A DNA stretch of 24,000 nt from Parcubacteria group bacterium (GCA_016784305.1 JADHUY010000007.1:2340-26339); one strand, 5' to 3'; shown: positions 5,214-23,514, numbered from the stretch's first letter. Numbers and translations are program-made. Notes: generated from the sequence alone by a model not told the origin.

Positions 5214-5978
5214 CTACAATAAATCTAAAAGTGCATCATACTCAAGAAAGCCAAATATGCTAAACCCCCACTGGACAAGAAGCCCGAAGTTATTTGTTAG
5301 AAGTAATACCCCAATAAAGACTAGGAAAACCCCGCCCACAATAGAAGTCCATTTTATATACCTATCCATCCTCTTTATATATGAAGTCGCGTGAGAAATA
5401 CCAAGAGCTACAAGGAGAAACGGCACAGCAAGTCCTGCGGAGAATACTGCAAGGAGAATAGCTCCAGAAAAAGCGGCAGAAGATGTTGAAGCAAGGAGTA
5501 AGATTGACCCTAATATTGGCCCCACACAAGGCGTCCAGCCGAAAGCAAAAGCAGAGCCAATAATAAATGAACTTGAGGGTTTCCCTATTGAGAGCCACTT
5601 TGGAGCACTTATTTTTTTCTCCTTATTTAGAAATGGAATATTTAACACTCCGAGCATAAAAAGCCCAAACAATATAACAAACAGTCCACCAGTCCTTGTG
5701 AGCCACACTCTATAAGGTACTAGTCCTTGTCCTATAACTCCCGCCAAAGTCCCAAACAATATAAATACAACAGAAAACCCAAGGATAAAGAAAACCCCAT
5801 TTAAAAATATTCTTCTTCTTACTTCTTTCTTTTTGTTTGGGTTGTTTAAATCCTCGGGCGGTACTCCACTAATAAAGCCGAGGTACCCCGGCACAAGTGG
5901 AAGCGTGCACGGGGCAAGAAAAGTTAAAAGCCCCGCAATGAATGCTGATACAATAAATCCAATTGAAAGTGGTTCCAT
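5214..5978 (-). CDS. ccdA: cytochrome c biogenesis/thiol-disulfide electron transporter CcdA (DsbD-family membrane protein)
   Basis: A polytopic membrane protein with LAPCTLPLVPGYLGFISG and WTPCVGPILGSIL, the two conserved Cys-containing motifs of CcdA/DsbD. Confidence 0.85.
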   Translation of the reverse strand: MEPLSIGFIVSAFIAGLLTFLAPCTLPLVPGYLGFISGVPPEDLNNPNKKKEVRRRIFLNGVFFILGFSVVFILFGTLAGVIGQGLVPYRVWLTRTGGLFVILFGLFMLGVLNIPFLNKEKKISAPKWLSIGKPSSSFIIGSAFAFGWTPCVGPILGSILLLASTSSAAFSGAILLAVFSAGLAVPFLLVALGISHATSYIKRMDRYIKWTSIVGGVFLVFIGVLLLTNNFGLLVQWGFSIFGFLEYDALLDLL

Positions 5979-5986
5979 TTTAATTT

Positions 5987-6529
5987 TTAAATTTCTAGTA
6001 GCATTTCCTCAATATGTTGTTTCATCTCCTCAAAACTTAACGGTCCGCGCTTGTGAAGTAGTATATCCCCGTTGTTATTAACAAATATAGTCTCTGGCAT
6101 CCCAAATCCACCAATAGATTGATAAAAACTATCTTTAGGGTCAAGCAAAAGTGTAATTCTTCCTGTGATATTTAAATCATCAGAGAATTTCTTAACTTTA
6201 TCTAAGCTTTCGGCTCTATCAATCGCAACAACCGCTATCTCATCCCGAAACATCTCCTGGAGAAGTGCGAAGTCGTGAAGCTCCTCCACACAAAACGGAC
6301 ACCATGTAGCCCAAGCGTTAACAATAGTTATGTCTTTTTCAGAGTAAGCTGAAGACACCACGCTTCTTTCATAATTCTCCAAACTAAACTCTGGAGCCCT
6401 GTCGTACTTCTCTTCTGTGACATCAGACTTTTTTGGCTCTACATTATTTCTATCTTCACTGTTTATAAATAGAAATGTCCCAACACCTACCAATATAAGT
6501 ACAGCTACCAGCCCGAGATACTTACTCAT
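5987..6529 (-). CDS. TlpA/ResA-like membrane-anchored thioredoxin-fold oxidoreductase
   Basis: An N-terminal anchor is followed by an AWATWCPFCVEE active site (CxxC) and a thioredoxin-fold tail. Confidence 0.8.
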   Translation of the reverse strand: MSKYLGLVAVLILVGVGTFLFINSEDRNNVEPKKSDVTEEKYDRAPEFSLENYERSVVSSAYSEKDITIVNAWATWCPFCVEELHDFALLQEMFRDEIAVVAIDRAESLDKVKKFSDDLNITGRITLLLDPKDSFYQSIGGFGMPETIFVNNNGDILLHKRGPLSFEEMKQHIEEMLLEI

Positions 6530-6532
6530 ACA

Positions 6533-7228
6533 TTAACTACTTAATGCGGCCTCAACTATTGATTTAATCTGCTCATATGGAAGTGCCCCACTAAACGGAA
6601 ATGTTTCACCCCTATCATTAACGACTACAACAAAAGGTGTCCCAGTGCCACCTGAAGAGAGAGCATCAGCTATGTCCTCTTCAACCTCTTTTGCAATGTC
6701 GTCTGATTCTAAACAAATCGCAAATGCCTCGCCAGAGAGCCCTAATTCACCGGCCACCCTATTAAATAAAGGCGCTCCAAGGCTGGTCTGATTTTCAAAT
6801 ATCTGGTCTGTAAACTCCCAATATGCATCATTCCCGCCAAGTTTTGCTACACATTCAGATGCAACACTTGCTCCAAACGCATTTGAATGAATTGATGTAA
6901 GAGGAAAATCTCTATAAATCCAATTTACTTCTCCGTCATACTCTTCCACAATTTGTGAAAGAGTTGGGTGAATACGAGCACAAAACGGACACTCAAAATC
7001 AGAGAACTCAATAATGGACACCCTTGCATCAACGCTTCCTCTTATATGGTCCGCCCCATCAATCTTTCTTACACTCTCTGCTGCGGCGGAGTTACTGTTC
7101 CCAAAGGAATTGTCGTCTACAACCACATCTGTTTTAGGTCCTGCTGTATAAACTGCAATGGCAATCAAAAATCCGGCAACAATGATTGACCCTGGAACTA
7201 AATACTTATTTTCTAAAGTCTTTTCCAT
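6533..7228 (-). CDS. DsbA-family thiol:disulfide oxidoreductase
   Basis: An N-terminal anchor is followed by the FSDFECPFCARIHP active site and a C-terminal GTPFVVVN motif, as in DsbA/thioredoxin_4 proteins. Confidence 0.8.
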   Translation of the reverse strand: MEKTLENKYLVPGSIIVAGFLIAIAVYTAGPKTDVVVDDNSFGNSNSAAAESVRKIDGADHIRGSVDARVSIIEFSDFECPFCARIHPTLSQIVEEYDGEVNWIYRDFPLTSIHSNAFGASVASECVAKLGGNDAYWEFTDQIFENQTSLGAPLFNRVAGELGLSGEAFAICLESDDIAKEVEEDIADALSSGGTGTPFVVVVNDRGETFPFSGALPYEQIKSIVEAALSS

Positions 7229-7230
7229 AT

Positions 7231-7860
7231 TTATCTATGCGAGGAAGGAACACCACTTTCCGGACCTCTATTTTGATAACGTTTAATAAACTCCTCTATT
7301 CGCTTTGTATCTAGCACTCCATCCTCTGGCACATCAAAGCTGTCCACTCTCCCCCACGCGGAAAGTCCAATATCCTTATCATTTTCTGAACGTGCAGAAA
7401 TAATAACAACACCTTTATCAAACTGTTTTAATTCCTCTTTAACTTCAGTGCTCACATTAGGCTTATAAGTAATCCAAACGTGCCCATGCTCTAGGTTGTG
7501 CACAACATTCCTATCATCAACCAACTCGCCCACATCATAAAAACCTAAATTCATAGTAGACGAATAATGTGAGCCAGACGTTGGTGGATTGGTTTGATAA
7601 GAGACCGCCACTCCATTTCCTACATGCTCTCTACCTTCTATTGGTGCATCCACACTAAAGTCCTCCCCACTAGGAGCACCCATTTTAGCTAAAAAATAAA
7701 TTCCGAATACAACAAGCGCTAGAACTACTAGCCAAAAAATCCACCTGAACATGCTGAGAGAACTTTTTTTCTTCTTGTTACTCTCAGTTACCTTTAAACG
7801 TCCTTCTTCACGCTCCTTTTTCTTTGCGTCATAAACTTCTTTTGCATTTAAATCTTCCAT
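7231..7860 (-). CDS. DUF3105 domain membrane-anchored protein
   Basis: NPPTSGSHY...VVHNLEHGHVWITY matches the conserved DUF3105 core as I recall it. A single N-terminal TM helix is present. Confidence 0.65.
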   Translation of the reverse strand: MEDLNAKEVYDAKKKEREEGRLKVTESNKKKKSSLSMFRWIFWLVVLALVVFGIYFLAKMGAPSGEDFSVDAPIEGREHVGNGVAVSYQTNPPTSGSHYSSTMNLGFYDVGELVDDRNVVHNLEHGHVWITYKPNVSTEVKEELKQFDKGVVIISARSENDKDIGLSAWGRVDSFDVPEDGVLDTKRIEEFIKRYQNRGPESGVPSSHR

Positions 7861-9377: not shown

Positions 9378-9427
9378 AGCACAACACCAGAACCTTGCGA
9401 TATATCGCAAGGTTCTGGTGTTGTGCT
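9378..9427. repeat. 50-nt perfect palindrome between divergent genes
   Basis: agcacaacaccagaaccttgcgata | tatcgcaaggttctggtgttgtgct, with the 25-nt arms checked base by base. The core ccttgcgatatatcgcaagg is related to the hairpin at 17530-17549. Confidence 0.9.
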
Positions 9428-10622: not shown

Positions 10623-10726
10623 ATATATATTTAAAATTAATCTGTTACCTCTACTCTAACCAGATATTGTTAAATAAGTTTTACGATTTGTAGTGTAACA
10701 CTTGTTTGGGTGCCTGACCTAGAATT

Positions 10727-10768
10727 GGCGTCAGGTCACTAACCTATTACTCCAGTATACTGGAGTAA
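10727..10768 (-). repeat. 18-nt box (ggcgtcaggtcactaacc) plus 22-nt perfect palindrome ttactccagta|tactggagtaa
   Basis: A near-identical module occurs at 17673-17721, with the box matching 17/18 and the same palindrome core. It lies downstream of tRNA-His on the minus strand. Confidence 0.85.
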
Positions 10769-10844
10769 CGCAATGTCATCTTAGTAGGGTGCACCCATCC
10801 GGGTACACTGCAGAAATCATAGTCGCTCTGCTCCTTATTTCTGG

Positions 10845-10916
10845 GTGCCTACCGGGAATTGAACCCGGATTTGAGGTTCCACAAACCTCTGTAATAACCG
10901 TTATACCATAGGCACC
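10845..10916 (-). tRNA. tRNA-His (anticodon GTG) with encoded G-1
   Basis: Manual fold of the reverse complement:
- G-1 followed by acceptor GTGCCTA/TAGGCAC.
- Anticodon arm GAGGT-TTGTGGA-ACCTC.
- T arm CCGGG-TTCAATT-CCCGG.
- Discriminator C. Confidence 0.85.
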
Positions 10917-17379: not shown

Positions 17380-17431
17380 TCAACTAGCATACATTGAAAT
17401 ACACAATATTTTCTATATACTGCTTGTTATT

Positions 17432-17505
17432 GGGCGATTAGCTCAGTTGGCTAGAGCAGTTGATTTACACTCATCAGGTCGGGGGTTCGAATCCCTCATC
17501 GCCCA
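17432..17505 (+). tRNA. tRNA-Val (anticodon TAC)
   Basis: Manual fold:
- Acceptor GGGCGAT/ATCGCCC.
- D arm GCTC-AGTTGGCTA-GAGC.
- Anticodon loop TTTACAC.
- T arm GGGGG-TTCGAAT-CCCTC. Confidence 0.85.
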
Positions 17506-17520
17506 CACTTTTAACTCCTT

Positions 17521-17558
17521 ACACTAAAACCTTACGATGTATCGTAAGGTTTTAGTGT
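17521..17558 (+). terminator. 17-bp perfect hairpin directly after tRNA-Val
   Basis: acactaaaaccttacga-tgta-tcgtaaggttttagtgt, followed by tttaaaaa. It belongs to the CGAT-core hairpin family (see 9378-9427 and 23339-23367). Confidence 0.5.
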
Positions 17559-17567
17559 TTTAAAAAT

Positions 17568-17593
17568 TAACTTTAGAGCTAGCTCTAAAGTTA
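17568..17593. repeat. 26-nt perfect palindrome taactttagagct|agctctaaagtta
   Basis: Arms checked base by base. A related copy lies at 23461-23492. Confidence 0.9.
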
Positions 17594-17618
17594 GTTCAGA
17601 AGTTTAAACGTAAATACT

Positions 17619-17662
17619 AATTTGTACGATACCTGCCTGCGCAGGCAGGTATCGTACAAATT
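17619..17662. repeat. 44-nt perfect palindrome aatttgtacgatacctgcctgc|gcaggcaggtatcgtacaaatt
   Basis: Arms checked base by base. The second copy at 23421-23464 differs only by a compensated A>G / T>C pair. Confidence 0.95.
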
Positions 17663-17672
17663 GTGAGAGATC

Positions 17673-17721
17673 GGCGTCAGCTCACTAACCACAATTACTC
17701 CAGTATACTGGAGTAATTGTG
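17673..17721 (-). repeat. 18-nt box (ggcgtcagctcactaacc) plus 32-nt perfect palindrome cacaattactccagta|tactggagtaattgtg
   Basis: Homologous to 10727-10768. Confidence 0.9.
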
Positions 17722-17758
17722 TAAGTGGCTCCTACCCAGACTCCTTCGCAATCTTTGT

Positions 17759-17794
17759 GGCGTCAGGTTTCTAACCTGCCTGCCGGCAGGCAGG
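17759..17794 (-). repeat. third copy of the box (ggcgtcaggtttctaacc) fused to a 20-nt perfect palindrome cctgcctgcc|ggcaggcagg
   Basis: The box matches the 10727 copy at 16/18 positions. The palindrome shares the cctgcctgc/gcaggcagg core with 17631-17650 and 23433-23452. Confidence 0.85.
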
Positions 17795-17851
17795 ACTCGC
17801 AGGCTCGTTAAGGACCTCCTGCCCGGGCAAGTTTACCTTGTGGTCACCCGT

Positions 17852-17887
17852 CACTAAGTATTTTTCATGAATTCAAAATACTAAGTG
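17852..17887. repeat. 13-bp hairpin (one mismatch) cactaagtatttt...aaaatactaagtg
   Basis: 12 of 13 positions pair, with the loop tcatgaattc. On the minus strand its 3' arm supplies a CTTAGTGAC box. Confidence 0.75.
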
Positions 17888-17948
17888 CGCTCGACCCCGG
17901 CTCGCCTTCGCGCTTCGCGCAATATGGCTCCGCCTGACACCAAGGCAC

Positions 17949-17970
17949 GGAAGCAAAGTAGTTTGCTTCC
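17949..17970. repeat. 9-bp hairpin ggaagcaaa-gtag-tttgcttcc
   Basis: Related to the longer hairpin at 23089-23136 (aggcacgRaagcaaagYagtttgcttYc). Confidence 0.8.
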
Positions 17971-17971
17971 T

Positions 17972-18010
17972 AAACAAAAAGGGCGCGCAAATTGCGCGCC
18001 CTTTTTGTTT
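17972..18010. terminator. bidirectional rho-independent terminator, 19-bp perfect GC-cored stem flanked by A/T runs
   Basis: aaacaaaaagggcgcgcaa-a-ttgcgcgccctttttgttt lies immediately 3' of tRNA-Arg(TCT) on the minus strand. Confidence 0.8.
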
Positions 18011-18014
18011 ACCT

Positions 18015-18089
18015 TGGTGTCCCCACGAGGAATCGAACCTCGATCTGCAGCTTAGAAGGCTGATGCTCTATCCGTTGAGCTATAGGGAC
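18015..18089 (-). tRNA. tRNA-Arg (anticodon TCT), CCA encoded
   Basis: Manual fold:
- Acceptor GTCCCTA/TGGGGAC.
- D arm GCTC-AACGGATA-GAGC.
- Anticodon loop CTTCTAA.
- T arm CGAGG-TTCGATT-CCTCG.
- 3' end A-CCA. Confidence 0.85.
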
Positions 18090-18129
18090 CACTAAAACGT
18101 AACAAATAAACCTAATATATTAAAGCCCT

Positions 18130-18729
18130 CTAAAGAAGTACCGCACTAAAAAGTGCAACGACTATTATTGCCACTGCAATAATCGTAACGATACGGGTGT
18201 GCTTCTTAAGTATAGAAATTGCTCTCTCGCCGTATAAATGCGTCAAGTAAGCCACCAAAAAGTATCTCAAACCACGCCCCACAAGTGAAGCCAATATAAA
18301 GATTACAAAATTAATTTTGAAAAACCCGCCAGCAAGCACAAACACCTTATATGGAATAGGTGTAAACGCTGCAATGAAAACAATGAGTGCTGAATTCCCA
18401 TTAAATTGCTCACCAACTTTTGCAAACTCGTCTGTCAGTCCGTAAAAATCTACAACCCTAGCTCCAACAACGTCATAAAAAGACGCCCCTATAACGTAGC
18501 CAAACACCGCGCCTAAGACCGCAAACACTGTAGTCAAAAAAGCGTAGTACGCCCACCTCTTTGAACTGACTAAAAGAATAGCAACAAGCAAAAGATCGGG
18601 CGGAATAAAAAGAAAAGAAGACTCCGTGAAAGAAAGGAAAGCCAGCCACCATTTAGCACCGGTGCCTTCCGCACGCTCCTTAAACCATTTAACACCACGC
18701 CTTTCTTCTTTATCAAATTCTTCAAGCAT
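18130..18729 (-). CDS. YqaA/DedA-superfamily membrane protein
   Basis: FTESSFLFIPPDLLLVA and the overall 4-5 TM layout match COG1238/YqaA-type proteins. Confidence 0.65.
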   Translation of the reverse strand: MLEEFDKEERRGVKWFKERAEGTGAKWWLAFLSFTESSFLFIPPDLLLVAILLVSSKRWAYYAFLTTVFAVLGAVFGYVIGASFYDVVGARVVDFYGLTDEFAKVGEQFNGNSALIVFIAAFTPIPYKVFVLAGGFFKINFVIFILASLVGRGLRYFLVAYLTHLYGERAISILKKHTRIVTIIAVAIIVVALFSAVLL

Positions 18730-20831: not shown

Positions 20832-22046
20832 CTAAAACTCTTCAAAGCTAGGAGTTAATGTTACGGTCGTATTTTCTGTCCTTATATTTCTTGTAGTTTG
20901 GCACGTTAGTGTATATGTACTTTCTTCTACGATTGGTGCAGTTACTTGAGAACCATCTTTCCCTGTGGCACTAAAGTTTGGGCCTGTTACTGAACAAGAA
21001 ATAATGTCATCATCCCCAAGCGTTGACCACGTGATTAATGATGTGTCTCCTGGTTTAACCTTATCTGGGTCAGCCGAAATATCTAGAACCGGCCAGAATA
21101 CACTTACATCAACTGACGCCTGTCCTCCGTTTGAACACACTACAATAAACTGTGTATCTATTGTTGGAGAAACCTGAACAGACCCAGAGGTAGCACCTCC
21201 TGTTGAGAAATTAGAGCCAGAGCTAGATGTTGAGTTTGAACAAGACCAAGTAAGTGTCGCTGACTGGCCTAGGATTACCTCAGGTTTATTAGTTGAAAAA
21301 GATGGTGGCGTCGGCACACACCCAGATTCGGCTGGAGTACTAGCCGAGCATGAGCCATTACATTGAATGGTTCCACTGTTTGTCTGACCGCACGAGTTGG
21401 CCGCTGACTGACAACTGTTGCCATATCCGCTCGGGTTAGAAGGAGTGCTGGCAGAACATGAGCCATTACATTGGATAGCCCCGGCTGAAGTCTGTCCACA
21501 AGCATTCGCAGATGAGTAGCAAGTGTTGCCGTAGCCACTAGGATTAGATGGAGTGCTTGCGGAGCATGAACCATTACATTGGATTGTTCCGCTATTTCTT
21601 TGACCGCATGAATTATATGAAGAGTAGCAAGTATTACCGTAACCGCTAGGATTAGACGGAGTGCTTGCCGAACATGATCCATTACATTGAATGGTTCCGC
21701 TGTTTCTTTGACCGCATGAGTTACTACTTGAATAGCAGGTGTTGCCATATCCGCTTGGATTTGGCGGAGCACTGCTTACAGAGCAGTTGCCACTACAATC
21801 AATCGTGCCACTTGTTCTTTGGCTACATGAGTTGTATGAAGAATAACAGGTTTGCCCAACATTGCCTTCGCACCCACCAAAAGCACCGGCAGCATCAGCA
21901 TCAGCACCACTTCCATCCCCAGGTCCACTATCACCATCAGCAAAAACAGTCCCGACTGCTAAAAATGAAAAACTTAGGATCGCAACCGCAACGAACACAA
22001 TAAATATTAGAAATTTAAAGTGGCTATATGTATTCTTTATTATCAT
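20832..22046 (-). CDS. secreted cysteine-rich tandem-repeat surface protein with two C-terminal Ig-like/beta-sandwich-type domains
   Basis: An N-terminal signal/anchor is followed by five 36-aa units (PSNPSGYGNTCYSSxNSCGQRNSGTIQCNGSCSAST, spacing C-x6-C-x9-C-x3-C). The C-terminal ~160 aa is paralogous to the CDS at 23515-24000. Confidence 0.75.
   Translation of the reverse strand: MIIKNTYSHFKFLIFIVFVAVAILSFSFLAVGTVFADGDSGPGDGSGADADAAGAFGGCEGNVGQTCYSSYNSCSQRTSGTIDCSGNCSVSSAPPNPSGYGNTCYSSSNSCGQRNSGTIQCNGSCSASTPSNPSGYGNTCYSSYNSCGQRNSGTIQCNGSCSASTPSNPSGYGNTCYSSANACGQTSAGAIQCNGSCSASTPSNPSGYGNSCQSAANSCGQTNSGTIQCNGSCSASTPAESGCVPTPPSFSTNKPEVILGQSATLTWSCSNSTSSSGSNFSTGGATSGSVQVSPTIDTQFIVVCSNGGQASVDVSVFWPVLDISADPDKVKPGDTSLITWSTLGDDDIISCSVTGPNFSATGKDGSQVTAPIVEESTYTLTCQTTRNIRTENTTVTLTPSFEEF
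21333..21872 (-). repeat. 108-bp in-frame tandem repeat array (about 5 units) inside the Cys-rich gene
   Basis: The marker ccattacatt recurs at 21355, 21463, 21571 and 21679, an exact 108-nt period. A more diverged unit follows. Confidence 0.9.
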
Positions 22047-22848: not shown

Positions 22849-22920
22849 GCCCTCGTAGTTCAAGGGATAGAATACAAGTTTGCGGAACTTGCGATCCAGG
22901 TTCGAATCCTGGCGAGGGCA
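22849..22920 (+). tRNA. tRNA-Arg (anticodon GCG)
   Basis: Manual fold:
- Acceptor GCCCTCG/CGAGGGC.
- D arm GTTC-AAGGGATA-GAAT.
- Anticodon arm CAAGT-TTGCGGA-ACTTG.
- T arm CCAGG-TTCGAAT-CCTGG.
- Discriminator A. Confidence 0.8.
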
Positions 22921-22923
22921 CAT
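22908..22923 (+). repeat. 16-nt direct repeat, copy 1 (tRNA-Arg-GCG 3' end plus 3 nt)
   Basis: cctggcgagggcacat is identical to 23080-23095. Confidence 0.9.
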
Positions 22924-22953: not shown

Positions 22954-22975
22954 GAAGTGTGCTTGCGCACACTTC
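22954..22975. repeat. 9-bp perfect hairpin gaagtgtgc-ttgc-gcacacttc
   Basis: Checked base by base. Confidence 0.85.
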
Positions 22976-23079
22976 GTCAGGATTCGAACGCCGGAACATG
23001 TCCCGAGGTCTACGAGGGACAGTGAGGTGTGTCCCGCGGTACTTAGCGAGTTTACGAGCTTAGTGACCGTCAGGACGAA

Positions 23080-23095
23080 CCTGGCGAGGGCACAT
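23080..23095 (+). repeat. 16-nt direct repeat, copy 2, preceded by a degenerate T-arm
   Basis: cctggcgagggcacat is preceded by gtcaggacgaa, compared with ccaggttcgaat in the real tRNA. The segment 23063-23093 folds as about 12 bp of stacked helices (GTGACC+GTCAGG / CCTGGC+GGGCAC). Confidence 0.85.
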
Positions 23096-23136
23096 AGGCA
23101 CGAAAGCAAAGCAGTTTGCTTTCGTGCCTATGTGCC
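23089..23136. repeat. 22-bp perfect hairpin ggcacataggcacgaaagcaaa-gcag-tttgctttcgtgcctatgtgcc
   Basis: Checked base by base. It is homologous to 17946-17970, with G>A / C>T changes that keep the pairing. Confidence 0.9.
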
Positions 23137-23177: not shown

Positions 23178-23209
23178 GAATGAGTTCGGGGAGGGAGTTC
23201 TTGGGAACG

Positions 23210-23233
23210 TAGTGACCTAGAAACTCGACCCCA
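23210..23233 (+). repeat. direct repeat copy 1: tagtgacctagaaactcgacccca
   Basis: The first 15 nt are identical to 23302-23316, and 21 of 24 nt match overall. It carries the TAGTGACC box. Confidence 0.85.
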
Positions 23234-23301
23234 CAATTGCACCCATCACTAACTCGCTATCGCTGCTAAGCGATGTGTGGTCGAATCCTATTTATAAAAC
23301 A

Positions 23302-23325
23302 TAGTGACCTAGAAACCCAACTCCA
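23302..23325 (+). repeat. direct repeat copy 2: tagtgacctagaaacccaactcca
   Basis: See 23210-23233. The copies are spaced 92 nt apart. Confidence 0.85.
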
Positions 23326-23420: not shown

Positions 23421-23464
23421 AATTTGTGCGATACCTGCCTGCGCAGGCAGGTATCGCACAAATT
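23421..23464. repeat. 44-nt perfect palindrome aatttgtgcgatacctgcctgc|gcaggcaggtatcgcacaaatt
   Basis: The second copy of 17619-17662. It probably also serves as the terminator of the minus-strand gene that ends at 23515. Confidence 0.95.
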
Positions 23465-23492
23465 AACTCCAGAGCTAGCTCTAGAGTTAATT
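23461..23492. repeat. 32-nt palindrome (one mismatch) aattaactccagagct|agctctagagttaatt
   Basis: Related to 17568-17593. It overlaps the previous palindrome by the 4 nt aatt. Confidence 0.85.
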
Positions 23493-23514
23493 CTGTACAC
23501 TTCAAAAATTAAAT

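Follow-up and report, generated by a model that had tools for sequence, protein, structure and literature searches.

What joins one and the same short sequence to perfect palindromes, each time beside a tRNA gene, in a bacterial genome? The question is raised by a 24,000-nucleotide (nt) stretch of DNA from a Parcubacteria group bacterium (GCA_016784305.1 JADHUY010000007.1:2340-26339; hereafter the window, to which coordinates without a locus name refer). The stretch belongs to a cellular genome and carries small housekeeping genes (ThyX, FolD, L11, NusG, L19, UppS, RuvX, and others) and six tRNA genes; by its flanking DedA/VTT protein, it stems from a Parcubacteria/Paceibacteria metagenome-assembled genome of the candidate phyla radiation (CPR). 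An 18-nt box, GGCGTCAGNTNNCTAACC, occurs in the window exactly three times, always on the plus strand (10727-10744, 17673-17690, and 17759-17776), compared to zero matches of the same pattern in 100 dinucleotide-preserving shuffles. The box is real, and lies far beyond chance. A sequence-only reading of the window had described it as a constant box, matching at 16-17 of 18 positions and fused to unrelated palindromes that can be swapped. The three copies do match, although the lowest of the pairwise identities (17/18, 16/18, and 15/18) falls below that range, and each abuts a perfect palindrome as described (22 nt at 10747-10768, 32 nt at 17690-17721, and 20 nt at 17775-17794). The palindromes, in contrast, are not all unrelated: TTACTCCAGTATACTGGAGTAA is common to two of the three, whose tips are homologous over a common core of 22-23 nt, and it is the GC-rich third that differs. 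All versions of the box, including shorter ones, are intergenic and adjoin tRNA genes, as had been noted.

The fold provides a first answer. Read on the strand of the tRNA, the box (GGUUAGUGAGCUGACGCC) is the 3′ strand of a main helix, P3, whose 5′ strand is GGGCAGGAGCCACUUACC; the palindrome is the variable tip of this helix, and the 5′ strand lies beyond it (at 17722-17738 for the copy at 17673). The constant box with a swappable hairpin hence turns out to be a helix with a variable tip: the palindrome does vary, but the box is no independent module, which changes the parsing of such repeats. The element as a whole is ~120-135 nt long, has no open reading frame (ORF) and no Rfam match, and forms a three-way junction of a closing helix P1, in which an antisense segment pairs with a duplicated part of the tRNA, a hairpin P2 on an invariant CGGAG, and P3, which runs GGC-AGG-AGC-CACUUACC, variable tip, GGUUAGUG-A-GCU-GAC-GCC. 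P3 occurs in subtypes that covary between the two strands, namely a B-type (AGC-CACUUACC / GGUUAGUG-A-GCU), an A-type (AAGUU-CUUAG / CUUAG-A-AACUU), and a third type (CCG-CACUUA / UUAGUG-A-CGG), and across all of them a U.U mismatch, a bulged A, and a 3x3 internal loop (AGG/GAC) stay unchanged. The tips belong to a few exchangeable types, one of which, CCAGUAUACUGG, is common to the window and to the loci L015 and L021, with compensatory changes below the tip. The shorter box versions listed earlier are all present as well, but they are a heterogeneous set rather than one kind: those at 17850-17858 and 23059-23068 are the same helix strand in two further units, the one at 23210 lies within the tip and 3′ strand of an A-type unit, and the one at 23302 is a duplicate of a fragment. 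The hairpins attached to the box have no T-runs, and a terminator scan of 17380-18130 called 17983-17999 and 17568-17593 only and left them uncalled, in agreement with the earlier view that they are not plain terminators.

The fold is borne out by folding of single sequences, which gave the same three-way junction at z = −4.7 to −10 (units in the window fold alike), and by compensatory changes that go beyond both shuffled and slid controls, the hallmark of a structured single-stranded nucleic acid. In a MAFFT alignment of nine copies that was not fitted to any structure, 85.8% of the cells were paired, compared to 70.8% upon shuffling, with 0 of 500 shuffles as high; 16 pairs were changed on both sides, and slid controls had 33-43% of cells paired. 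For 17 copies, in an alignment that was fitted to the covariance model described below, the values were 88.2% versus 67%, with 25 of 30 pairs covarying and again 0 of 500 shuffles as high (slid controls, 33-43%). On the tRNA-sense strand, G.U pairs outnumber A.C pairs by 18 to 6. That the mismatch is kept on one strand points to a functional form that is single-stranded.

The element is not confined to the window. We scanned one genome per species (185,579 species) for the box in tRNA-sense orientation and obtained 12 loci, seven of which were Patescibacteria with one common architecture, even though this group makes up a small share of the bases scanned. Two of the others were leucine-rich-repeat coding arrays (V-S-D-L-T-P), a chance match, and three were isolated single matches (Azophilus, archaeal, and Hyphomicrobiales records) with no tRNA gene in the examined stretch, which we take as chance. 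Coding arrays of this kind, with a 66-nt period (..VSDLTPLANL..), match the box at L016 3300-5000 (Planctomycetia) and L020 1146-1794 (Pseudomonadota) and could mislead pattern searches. A metagenome scan added four loci, and altogether ~30 copies came from ~15 genomes of Patescibacteria (Paceibacteria), which sets aside the possibility of a local duplication only. All Patescibacteria copies show one order behind an intact tRNA: a trailer and terminator-like hairpin, the antisense segment (for example GGAGAAUCGAA, the exact reverse complement of T-loop and T-stem 3′ strand), AAG-N-CGGAG, a hairpin, GGCGAG-N-CCGGGCAGGAGCCACUU(A/C)C, the variable hairpin, the box GGUUAGUGAGCUGACGCC, and a direct copy of the tRNA from C56. 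A covariance model, R1, built from nine copies, also matched copies that it had not been trained on, behind tRNA-Met in L015 (94.5 bits), tRNA-Glu in L017 (72), tRNA-Phe in L027 (71), tRNA-Val and tRNA-Arg(tct) in L028 (68.9 and 49.1), tRNA-His and tRNA-Leu in L029 (62.7 and 57.3), and tRNA-Ser in L031 (32.2), with E-values overall down to 1e-36. The cores hardly differ between hosts with flanking proteins of ~53-58% identity.

Known families do not account for it. Rfam 15 at gathering score returned only tRNAs in the window, and permissive scans of 17380-18130, L013, L015, and L019 only tRNAs and noise, so that the box is not part of a described Rfam family; nor did we find the element described in the literature searched. 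Signal recognition particle RNA, RNase P, tmRNA, and 6S RNA were rejected for 17722-17975, which has no Rfam or ARAGORN match and several tRNA-specific copies, and the motifs of hammerheads (CUGANGA/GAAA) and kink-turns do not fit by eye. Paceibacteria hence harbor a structured, tRNA-linked family that had gone unannotated and is most likely mobile. To our knowledge, these tiny, uncultured Patescibacteria of the CPR have very small genomes with few recognized mobile elements and almost no characterized noncoding RNAs.

The link to tRNA genes is strict. All R1 matches with E < 1e-5 lie behind a tRNA and on its strand, the first unit of an array 33-78 nt downstream of the tRNA gene, and at least 17 isoacceptors carry units. 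Both flanks of a unit derive from its target: the 5′ flank is an inverted copy of the tRNA T-loop and T-stem 3′ strand (ending ...UCGAA, from T54) or of the 3′ end and trailer, the 3′ flank repeats the tRNA in direct orientation, from C56 to a point 1-7 nt beyond the tRNA 3′ end, and the two pair with each other to form P1. The direct repeats measure 18-24 nt and start at C56 in most copies, and the antisense matches measure 8-18 nt; for random windows, the longest common substring has a mean of 5.5 nt and a 95th percentile of 7. The antisense segment reaches T54 and so passes the junction by two bases. Whereas most direct repeats are exact, mismatches occur in the antisense segments of L014, L024, L026, and L027, which is compatible with a duplication made at insertion and an inherited guide. 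The box accordingly stands at a recombination-like junction with duplicated tRNA sequence, in an element with a guide-like segment complementary to the tRNA, and in these respects, as in its view on terminators, the sequence-only reading is supported; its parsing into box and palindromes is not. An origin of the duplicated part from mature tRNA with an added CCA is not supported, as the CCA is found only in L019, and a split or intron-containing tRNA was rejected, since none of the upstream tRNAs is incomplete.

Within syntenic regions, orthologous tRNA genes carry units in some genomes and none in others. Behind tRNA-Arg(tct), the window has three units, its marine relative one or two, and L028 one, whereas L029 and L030 are empty; behind tRNA-His, the window and L029 are filled and L030 is empty. 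Units behind tRNA-Leu(gag) occur in L029 (two units), behind tRNA-Val(tac) in L028, and behind tRNA-Ser(tga) in L031, each of these sites being empty in the others, and L030 has units at none of its five tRNAs. In L029 and L030, 35-44 nt with a plain terminator separate the convergent tRNA-Arg and tRNA-Val genes. The marine relative, a 'Ca. Pacebacteria', is the closest one (74% amino-acid identity) and keeps the gene order RuvX, tRNA-binding protein, VTT, tRNA-Arg(tct), tRNA-Val, acylphosphatase, UppS. Its population is itself polymorphic behind tRNA-Arg(tct), where the long of the two alleles L009 and L004 equals the short one plus ~245 nt. This extra DNA is bounded by an exact 77-nt direct repeat that consists of the last ~14-20 nt of the tRNA and 63 nt of downstream hairpins, and the box stands at its right end, directly before the duplicated tRNA end, as it does in the window. 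The presence of tandem arrays, P3-only fragments, and decayed repeats is what repeated arrival and decay would produce.

Further differences were seen at these loci. The tRNA-Val gene (17432-17506 in the window; L004 11280-11354) is convergent with tRNA-Arg in the window, L029, and L030 and co-directional with it in the marine relative and L028, and upstream of tRNA-Val, the marine relative also has 25 nt of the 5′ part of this gene in duplicate. L014 contains at ~310-350 a mini tRNA-like pseudogene, in which an acceptor/D-arm start (GCCCGTAGCTCAG) is fused to a T-loop and 3′ end; L022, from the same metagenome-assembled genome, is without the ~110 nt that hold it. In L021, at least 3 kb with a Fic/DOC gene and two small ORFs (5305-7845) lie upstream of a canonical unit whose repeat resembles a tRNA-Ser 3′ end, with no tRNA within the 8 kb examined; possibly, a larger island has inserted here at the same tRNA.

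Taken together, we infer from the fold, the constant position and strand, the two target-derived flanks, and the patchy and polymorphic distribution that the unit is mobile but non-autonomous, with tRNA genes as its targets and a folded single strand as its active form, a reading to which we assign a probability of roughly 60%. The T-loop or the 3′ end of the tRNA would be the site at which the element inserts or, in the form of a small circle, is integrated; the tRNA would stay intact because its 3′ part is duplicated, and new arrivals would push older units downstream, where these would decay. Formally, one crossover would suffice, in which the tRNA 3′ part on the chromosome recombines with a small circle composed of tRNA part, terminator, antisense copy, and core; this gives exactly the observed order. 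Alternatively, a staggered cut could fall in the T-loop on one strand and just past the tRNA end on the other, or the reaction could be target-primed or RNA-mediated. More speculatively, the element may act as a tRNA-sense folded strand of RNA or single-stranded DNA (ssDNA), with the antisense segment as target guide and an enzyme supplied in trans; the reach of this segment to T54 has the look of a guide that spans a reaction site at 55/56. The element would be a miniature integrative element of a new type or else an RNA-guided system that is new and, in either case, a marker for the dynamics of tRNA loci, a cause of assembly breaks, and a compact natural scaffold-plus-guide architecture.

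Several observations weigh against this reading. Pfam scans of ORFs found no transposase, integrase, or reverse transcriptase in the window or the element-bearing loci, and no protein family is common to these loci by all-vs-all BLAST, the co-occurrence that the sequence-only reading had proposed to look for. Terminal inverted repeats are absent from the element, whose left boundary is undefined. Between tRNA and unit there is usually an intrinsic terminator, which makes co-transcription with the tRNA doubtful, and no promoter was found. The antisense segment of L025 has the real tRNA end as its pairing partner instead of the unit's own 3′ repeat, so that P1 is not universal. The 77-nt repeat of the marine alleles fits a deletion by homologous recombination as well as an insertion, and the larger of the two alignments is one fitted to the covariance model.

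The boldest form of the mobile-element reading is improbable. Here, an ORF-less folded RNA or ssDNA of ~130 nt would be the active part of a new kind of mobile element, guided by its T-arm-complementary segment; ribozyme-like chemistry, or an RNA-guided enzyme in trans, would join it at T-loop position 55/56 or at the tRNA 3′ end. A conserved scaffold with short variable target-matching segments is likewise seen in the internal guide of group I introns, in IS110 bridge RNA, and in the tigRNA of TIGR-Tas. In the units, too, one segment can pair with each DNA strand, which is the tandem-spacer logic of TIGR-Tas, and stem-loop arrays with variable palindromes have been reported in CPR bacteria (PMC12045711). 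In contrast to these systems, however, the units here measure ~130 nt instead of forming 36-nt array units, have no Nop/Tas, IS110 recombinase, or intron core, and carry two target-derived segments that overlap and pair mutually rather than address adjacent sites. No Nop or Cas domains were found in the window, and no IS110-type DEDD/Tnp recombinase ORF beside a unit in any locus. A CRISPR or TIGR array was rejected, since the units are irregularly spaced, the only regular box-matching arrays are the 66-nt leucine-rich-repeat coding ones, and TIGR features are absent. The intervening terminators, the failure to find a promoter, the pairing in L025, and the lack of an enzyme in cis or a viral carrier all count against a simple RNA model. 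If a guide-programmed RNA were nevertheless at work, the duplicated tRNA tail would keep the target functional, making the element a self-neutralizing parasite of tRNA genes in minimal CPR genomes.

About as improbable, yet the strongest of the competing explanations, is a host noncoding RNA gene family that is tied to tRNA expression and not itself mobile, such as a regulator that binds the upstream pre-tRNA in antisense and sequesters its T-arm or 3′ end, a structure for RNase III processing or insulation, or a decoy resembling the T-arm and acceptor 3′ strand of the tRNA. The strong conservation of structure and sequence across hosts with such diverged flanking proteins would suit a host function, as would the excess of G.U over A.C on the sense strand and the antisense segments that match the real upstream tRNA, sometimes better than the unit's own repeat (L017, 18/18; L025). 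It is the distribution that speaks against it: orthologous tRNAs carry units patchily, up to the fully empty sites of L030, a marine population is polymorphic for presence and absence, and the window contains tandem arrays, decayed copies, and P3-only fragments. The nearly identical cores behind at least 17 different tRNAs moreover require movement between loci, and the terminators upstream of the units fit poorly with a gene tied to tRNA expression.

Scars of integrative elements or prophages are a still less probable source. The units would be attR sides left by a tyrosine integrase crossing over in the T-loop, with the core as surviving attP arm. Direct repeats from T-loop to 3′ end are the classical signature of integration at tRNAs and flank the insert here as well (18-24 nt from C56), the unit of L021 is separated from any tRNA by 3 kb or more that include a Fic gene, and successive integrations push older att copies downstream, as in tycheposons (10.1101/2020.12.28.424599). 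The likeness of the units to tRNA-targeting integrative elements, including integrase-less ones (genomic islands, tycheposons, and cis-mobilizable elements), extends to the intact tRNA and to the stacking of successive arrivals with decay of older copies (10.1101/2020.12.28.424599). Yet the units are only ~130-250 nt long, carry no gene, have a conserved folded core, and add an inverted copy of the target, and one core family stands behind at least 17 tRNAs, specificities that would need many integrases in genomes of 0.6-1 Mb. Not one of the ~30 copies, all of the same small size, is accompanied by an integrase, with no integrase or recombinase gene in the window or in the 8- to 20-kb loci, and three patterns searched for a viral carrier had no match in 2.9 million viral contigs (IMG/VR). 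The junction does not look like an att core site either: the T-loop there reads GCC before GAUU instead of UUC before GAUU and is not intact, and the left arm (GAGCUGACGC; ..GCUGACGC directly before C56) is unlike the T-stem 5′ strand. Covariation and a U.U mismatch conserved on one strand are unexpected for duplex att arms.

Slightly less plausible again is a descent from ssDNA transposons of the HUH class, such that the units would be ends or miniature derivatives (PATE/REP-like) of IS200/IS605 or a related element, and P3 the hairpin recognized by the transposase. P3 is indeed an imperfect hairpin with a conserved mismatch and a foot ~10 nt from the right boundary, and in this it is much like the right end of IS608. 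The motif GCGAAGC, a very stable DNA mini-hairpin, recurs in P2 and in the tips of P3, the features are strand-specific, as in IS200/IS605 subterminal hairpins and palindrome-associated elements, and the target abuts the universal T-loop GTTC. IS200/IS605 elements, however, make no target duplication, whereas repeats of 18-24 nt and a linkage to tRNAs are found here. No gene for TnpA (the Y1 transposase), TnpB, or RAYT is present in any examined locus, and a left-end hairpin with matching features was not identified.

Miniature inverted-repeat transposable elements and mosaic repeats (REP/BIME, BOX, Correia, RPE) resemble the units in being short, noncoding, hairpin-forming, multicopy, intergenic, and modular, and this genome has recombining modules of its own in the P3 tips, the GCAAACUGCUUUGC hairpin, and the GC palindrome. 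The units differ from them in having neither terminal inverted repeats nor a short fixed target duplication: their only inverted repeat is the target-derived P1, the duplication of 18-24 nt is anchored on tRNA landmarks, and they are strictly tied to tRNA genes and to one strand, with target-derived flanks in both orientations. Chance similarity, local duplication, or ordinary terminator hairpins, for which one might cite that the genome's intergenic regions are full of other repeated palindromes and that the box also matches unrelated leucine-rich-repeat coding sequence in other phyla, are refuted by the species-genome scan and the R1 census, with zero matches expected in the window, the same architecture in ~15 genomes with E-values down to 1e-36 that include copies outside the training set, and box-attached hairpins without T-runs.

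R1 and folding place five units of this tRNA-linked element in the window, behind tRNA-His, tRNA-Arg(tct), and tRNA-Arg(gcg). Three units follow the intact tRNA-Arg(tct) gene (18015-18089, minus strand; ARAGORN, Rfam tRNA 68.8 bits), which encodes its 3′ CCA, unlike the other five tRNA genes. Between this tRNA and unit 1 lies a bidirectional intrinsic terminator palindrome (17971-18011; repeat analysis and terminator scan), which is part of a longer palindrome with interruptions that also takes in the tRNA 3′ end and trailer (18006-18021) and the anti-tRNA segment (17936-17945). A small hairpin module, GGAAGCAAACUACUUUGCUUCC-GUG (17946-17970, minus strand, from sequence), stands directly 5′ of the anti-tRNA segment and is also present in L004, L014, L019, L025, and L029. 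The module GGAAGCAAACUGCUUUGCUUCC(GUG) is inserted in otherwise perfect terminator palindromes, 5′ of the antisense segment, at 17946-17970 and at 23097-23130; at the latter, the tRNA-Arg(gcg) locus, its loop is inverted.

Unit 1 (17829-17949, minus strand) is a complete three-helix unit (R1 42.9 bits, E = 2.6e-11), and its minimum free energy (MFE) fold is the three-way junction (z = −3.5). On the same strand, it comprises the anti-tRNA segment CCUUGGUGUC, complementary to the tRNA end and trailer (17936-17945; repeat analysis), P2 (17899-17934), P3 (17842-17898, with the short box at 17850-17858), and a copy of the tRNA trailer (17831-17845). Unit 2 (17759-17828, minus strand) consists of an A-type P3 only, recognized by homology to the A-type P3 in L028, L029, and L004, and its own MFE fold is not significant (z = −1.2). 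Its 3′ strand is the third box copy (17759-17776), its 5′ strand lies at 17807-17827, and between them stands the 20-nt GC palindrome (17775-17794); this palindrome is a secondary insertion, which the homologous units of L028, L029, and L004 lack. Unit 3 (17660-17758, minus strand) is of B-type, with R1 scoring 60.6 bits (E = 1e-16) over 17660-17782 and the fold of 17668-17742 on the minus strand giving a canonical P3 (z = −6.0). Its parts, again on the minus strand, are a decayed copy of the tRNA T-loop and T-stem (17662-17672), the P3 3′ strand, that is, the second box copy (17673-17690), the 32-nt palindrome as P3 tip (17690-17721), the P3 5′ strand GGGUAGGAGCCACUUAC (17722-17738), and a shortened junction and P2 (17739-17758).

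The intact tRNA-His gene (10843-10915, minus strand; ARAGORN, Rfam) is followed by a decayed unit (10708-10842, minus strand), which R1 matched at 10713-10847 with 15.3 bits (E = 0.007, filters off). This unit has a degenerate 5′ half (10769-10842), a P3 tip palindrome (10747-10768), the first box copy (10727-10744), and an imperfect duplicate of the tRNA-His 3′ part (10708-10726), all on the minus strand; after the box, the duplicate reads AAUUCUAGGUCAGGCACCC, compared to CAAUUCCCGGUAGGCACCC for the real tRNA-His end. The GTGA..CAC pairing noted earlier for this copy is the box region folding onto this decayed duplicate.

On the plus strand, the intact tRNA-Arg(gcg) gene (22849-22921; ARAGORN, Rfam) is followed by a first unit at 22975-23095 (R1 14.2 bits, E = 0.014, match 22975-23089). 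It starts with the anti-tRNA segment GUCAGGAUUCGAA (22976-22988), of which 12 nt are complementary to the T-loop and T-stem, and continues with P2, a minimal P3 with the box variant GCUUAGUGACCGUCAGGA (23058-23075), and a 16- to 20-nt duplicate of the tRNA 3′ part (23076-23095), so that the box variant is followed by the duplicated tRNA end CGAACCUGGCGAGGGCACAU. A 48-nt palindrome that embeds the hairpin module (23089-23136; repeat analysis) precedes the second unit, with an A-type P3 (23123-23246, plus strand; R1 30.2 bits, E = 1.9e-7, filters off), and a fragment at 23298-23325 (plus strand; repeat analysis) duplicates the 3′ half of an A-type P3, with 86% identity to 23206-23233. The short box at 23245-23253, GTTAGTGAT, is oriented opposite to the neighboring tRNA-Arg(gcg), and the covariance model makes no call there.

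Other repeats accompany these loci. Two 44-nt perfect palindromes (17619-17662 and 23421-23464) differ by a compensated A>G / T>C change that leaves both perfect, and their center, where CCTGCCTGC meets GCAGGCAGG, recurs in the GC palindrome at 17775-17794 and in the P3 tip of L031; this center has the look of a small palindrome that spreads independently as a module. A further palindrome family, AACTTTAGAGCTAGCTCTAAAGTT, lies beside the 44-nt palindromes (17564-17597 and 23460-23493), in an order that differs at the two loci. A 50-nt perfect palindrome (9378-9427) stands between an ArsR-like gene and a SWEET/PQ-loop gene; the tRNA-Val terminator (17527-17552) and the P3 tip of the marine relative are both related to its core, CCTTGCGATATATCGCAAGG. 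An ORF of 404 amino acids (20832-22046), without Pfam match, contains four tandem 108-nt repeats of 36 amino acids each (21333-21807). An independent assembly of the same organism (L001, an ENA contig) breaks at window position ~17698, inside the 32-nt palindrome; repeated hairpins of this kind fragment assemblies.

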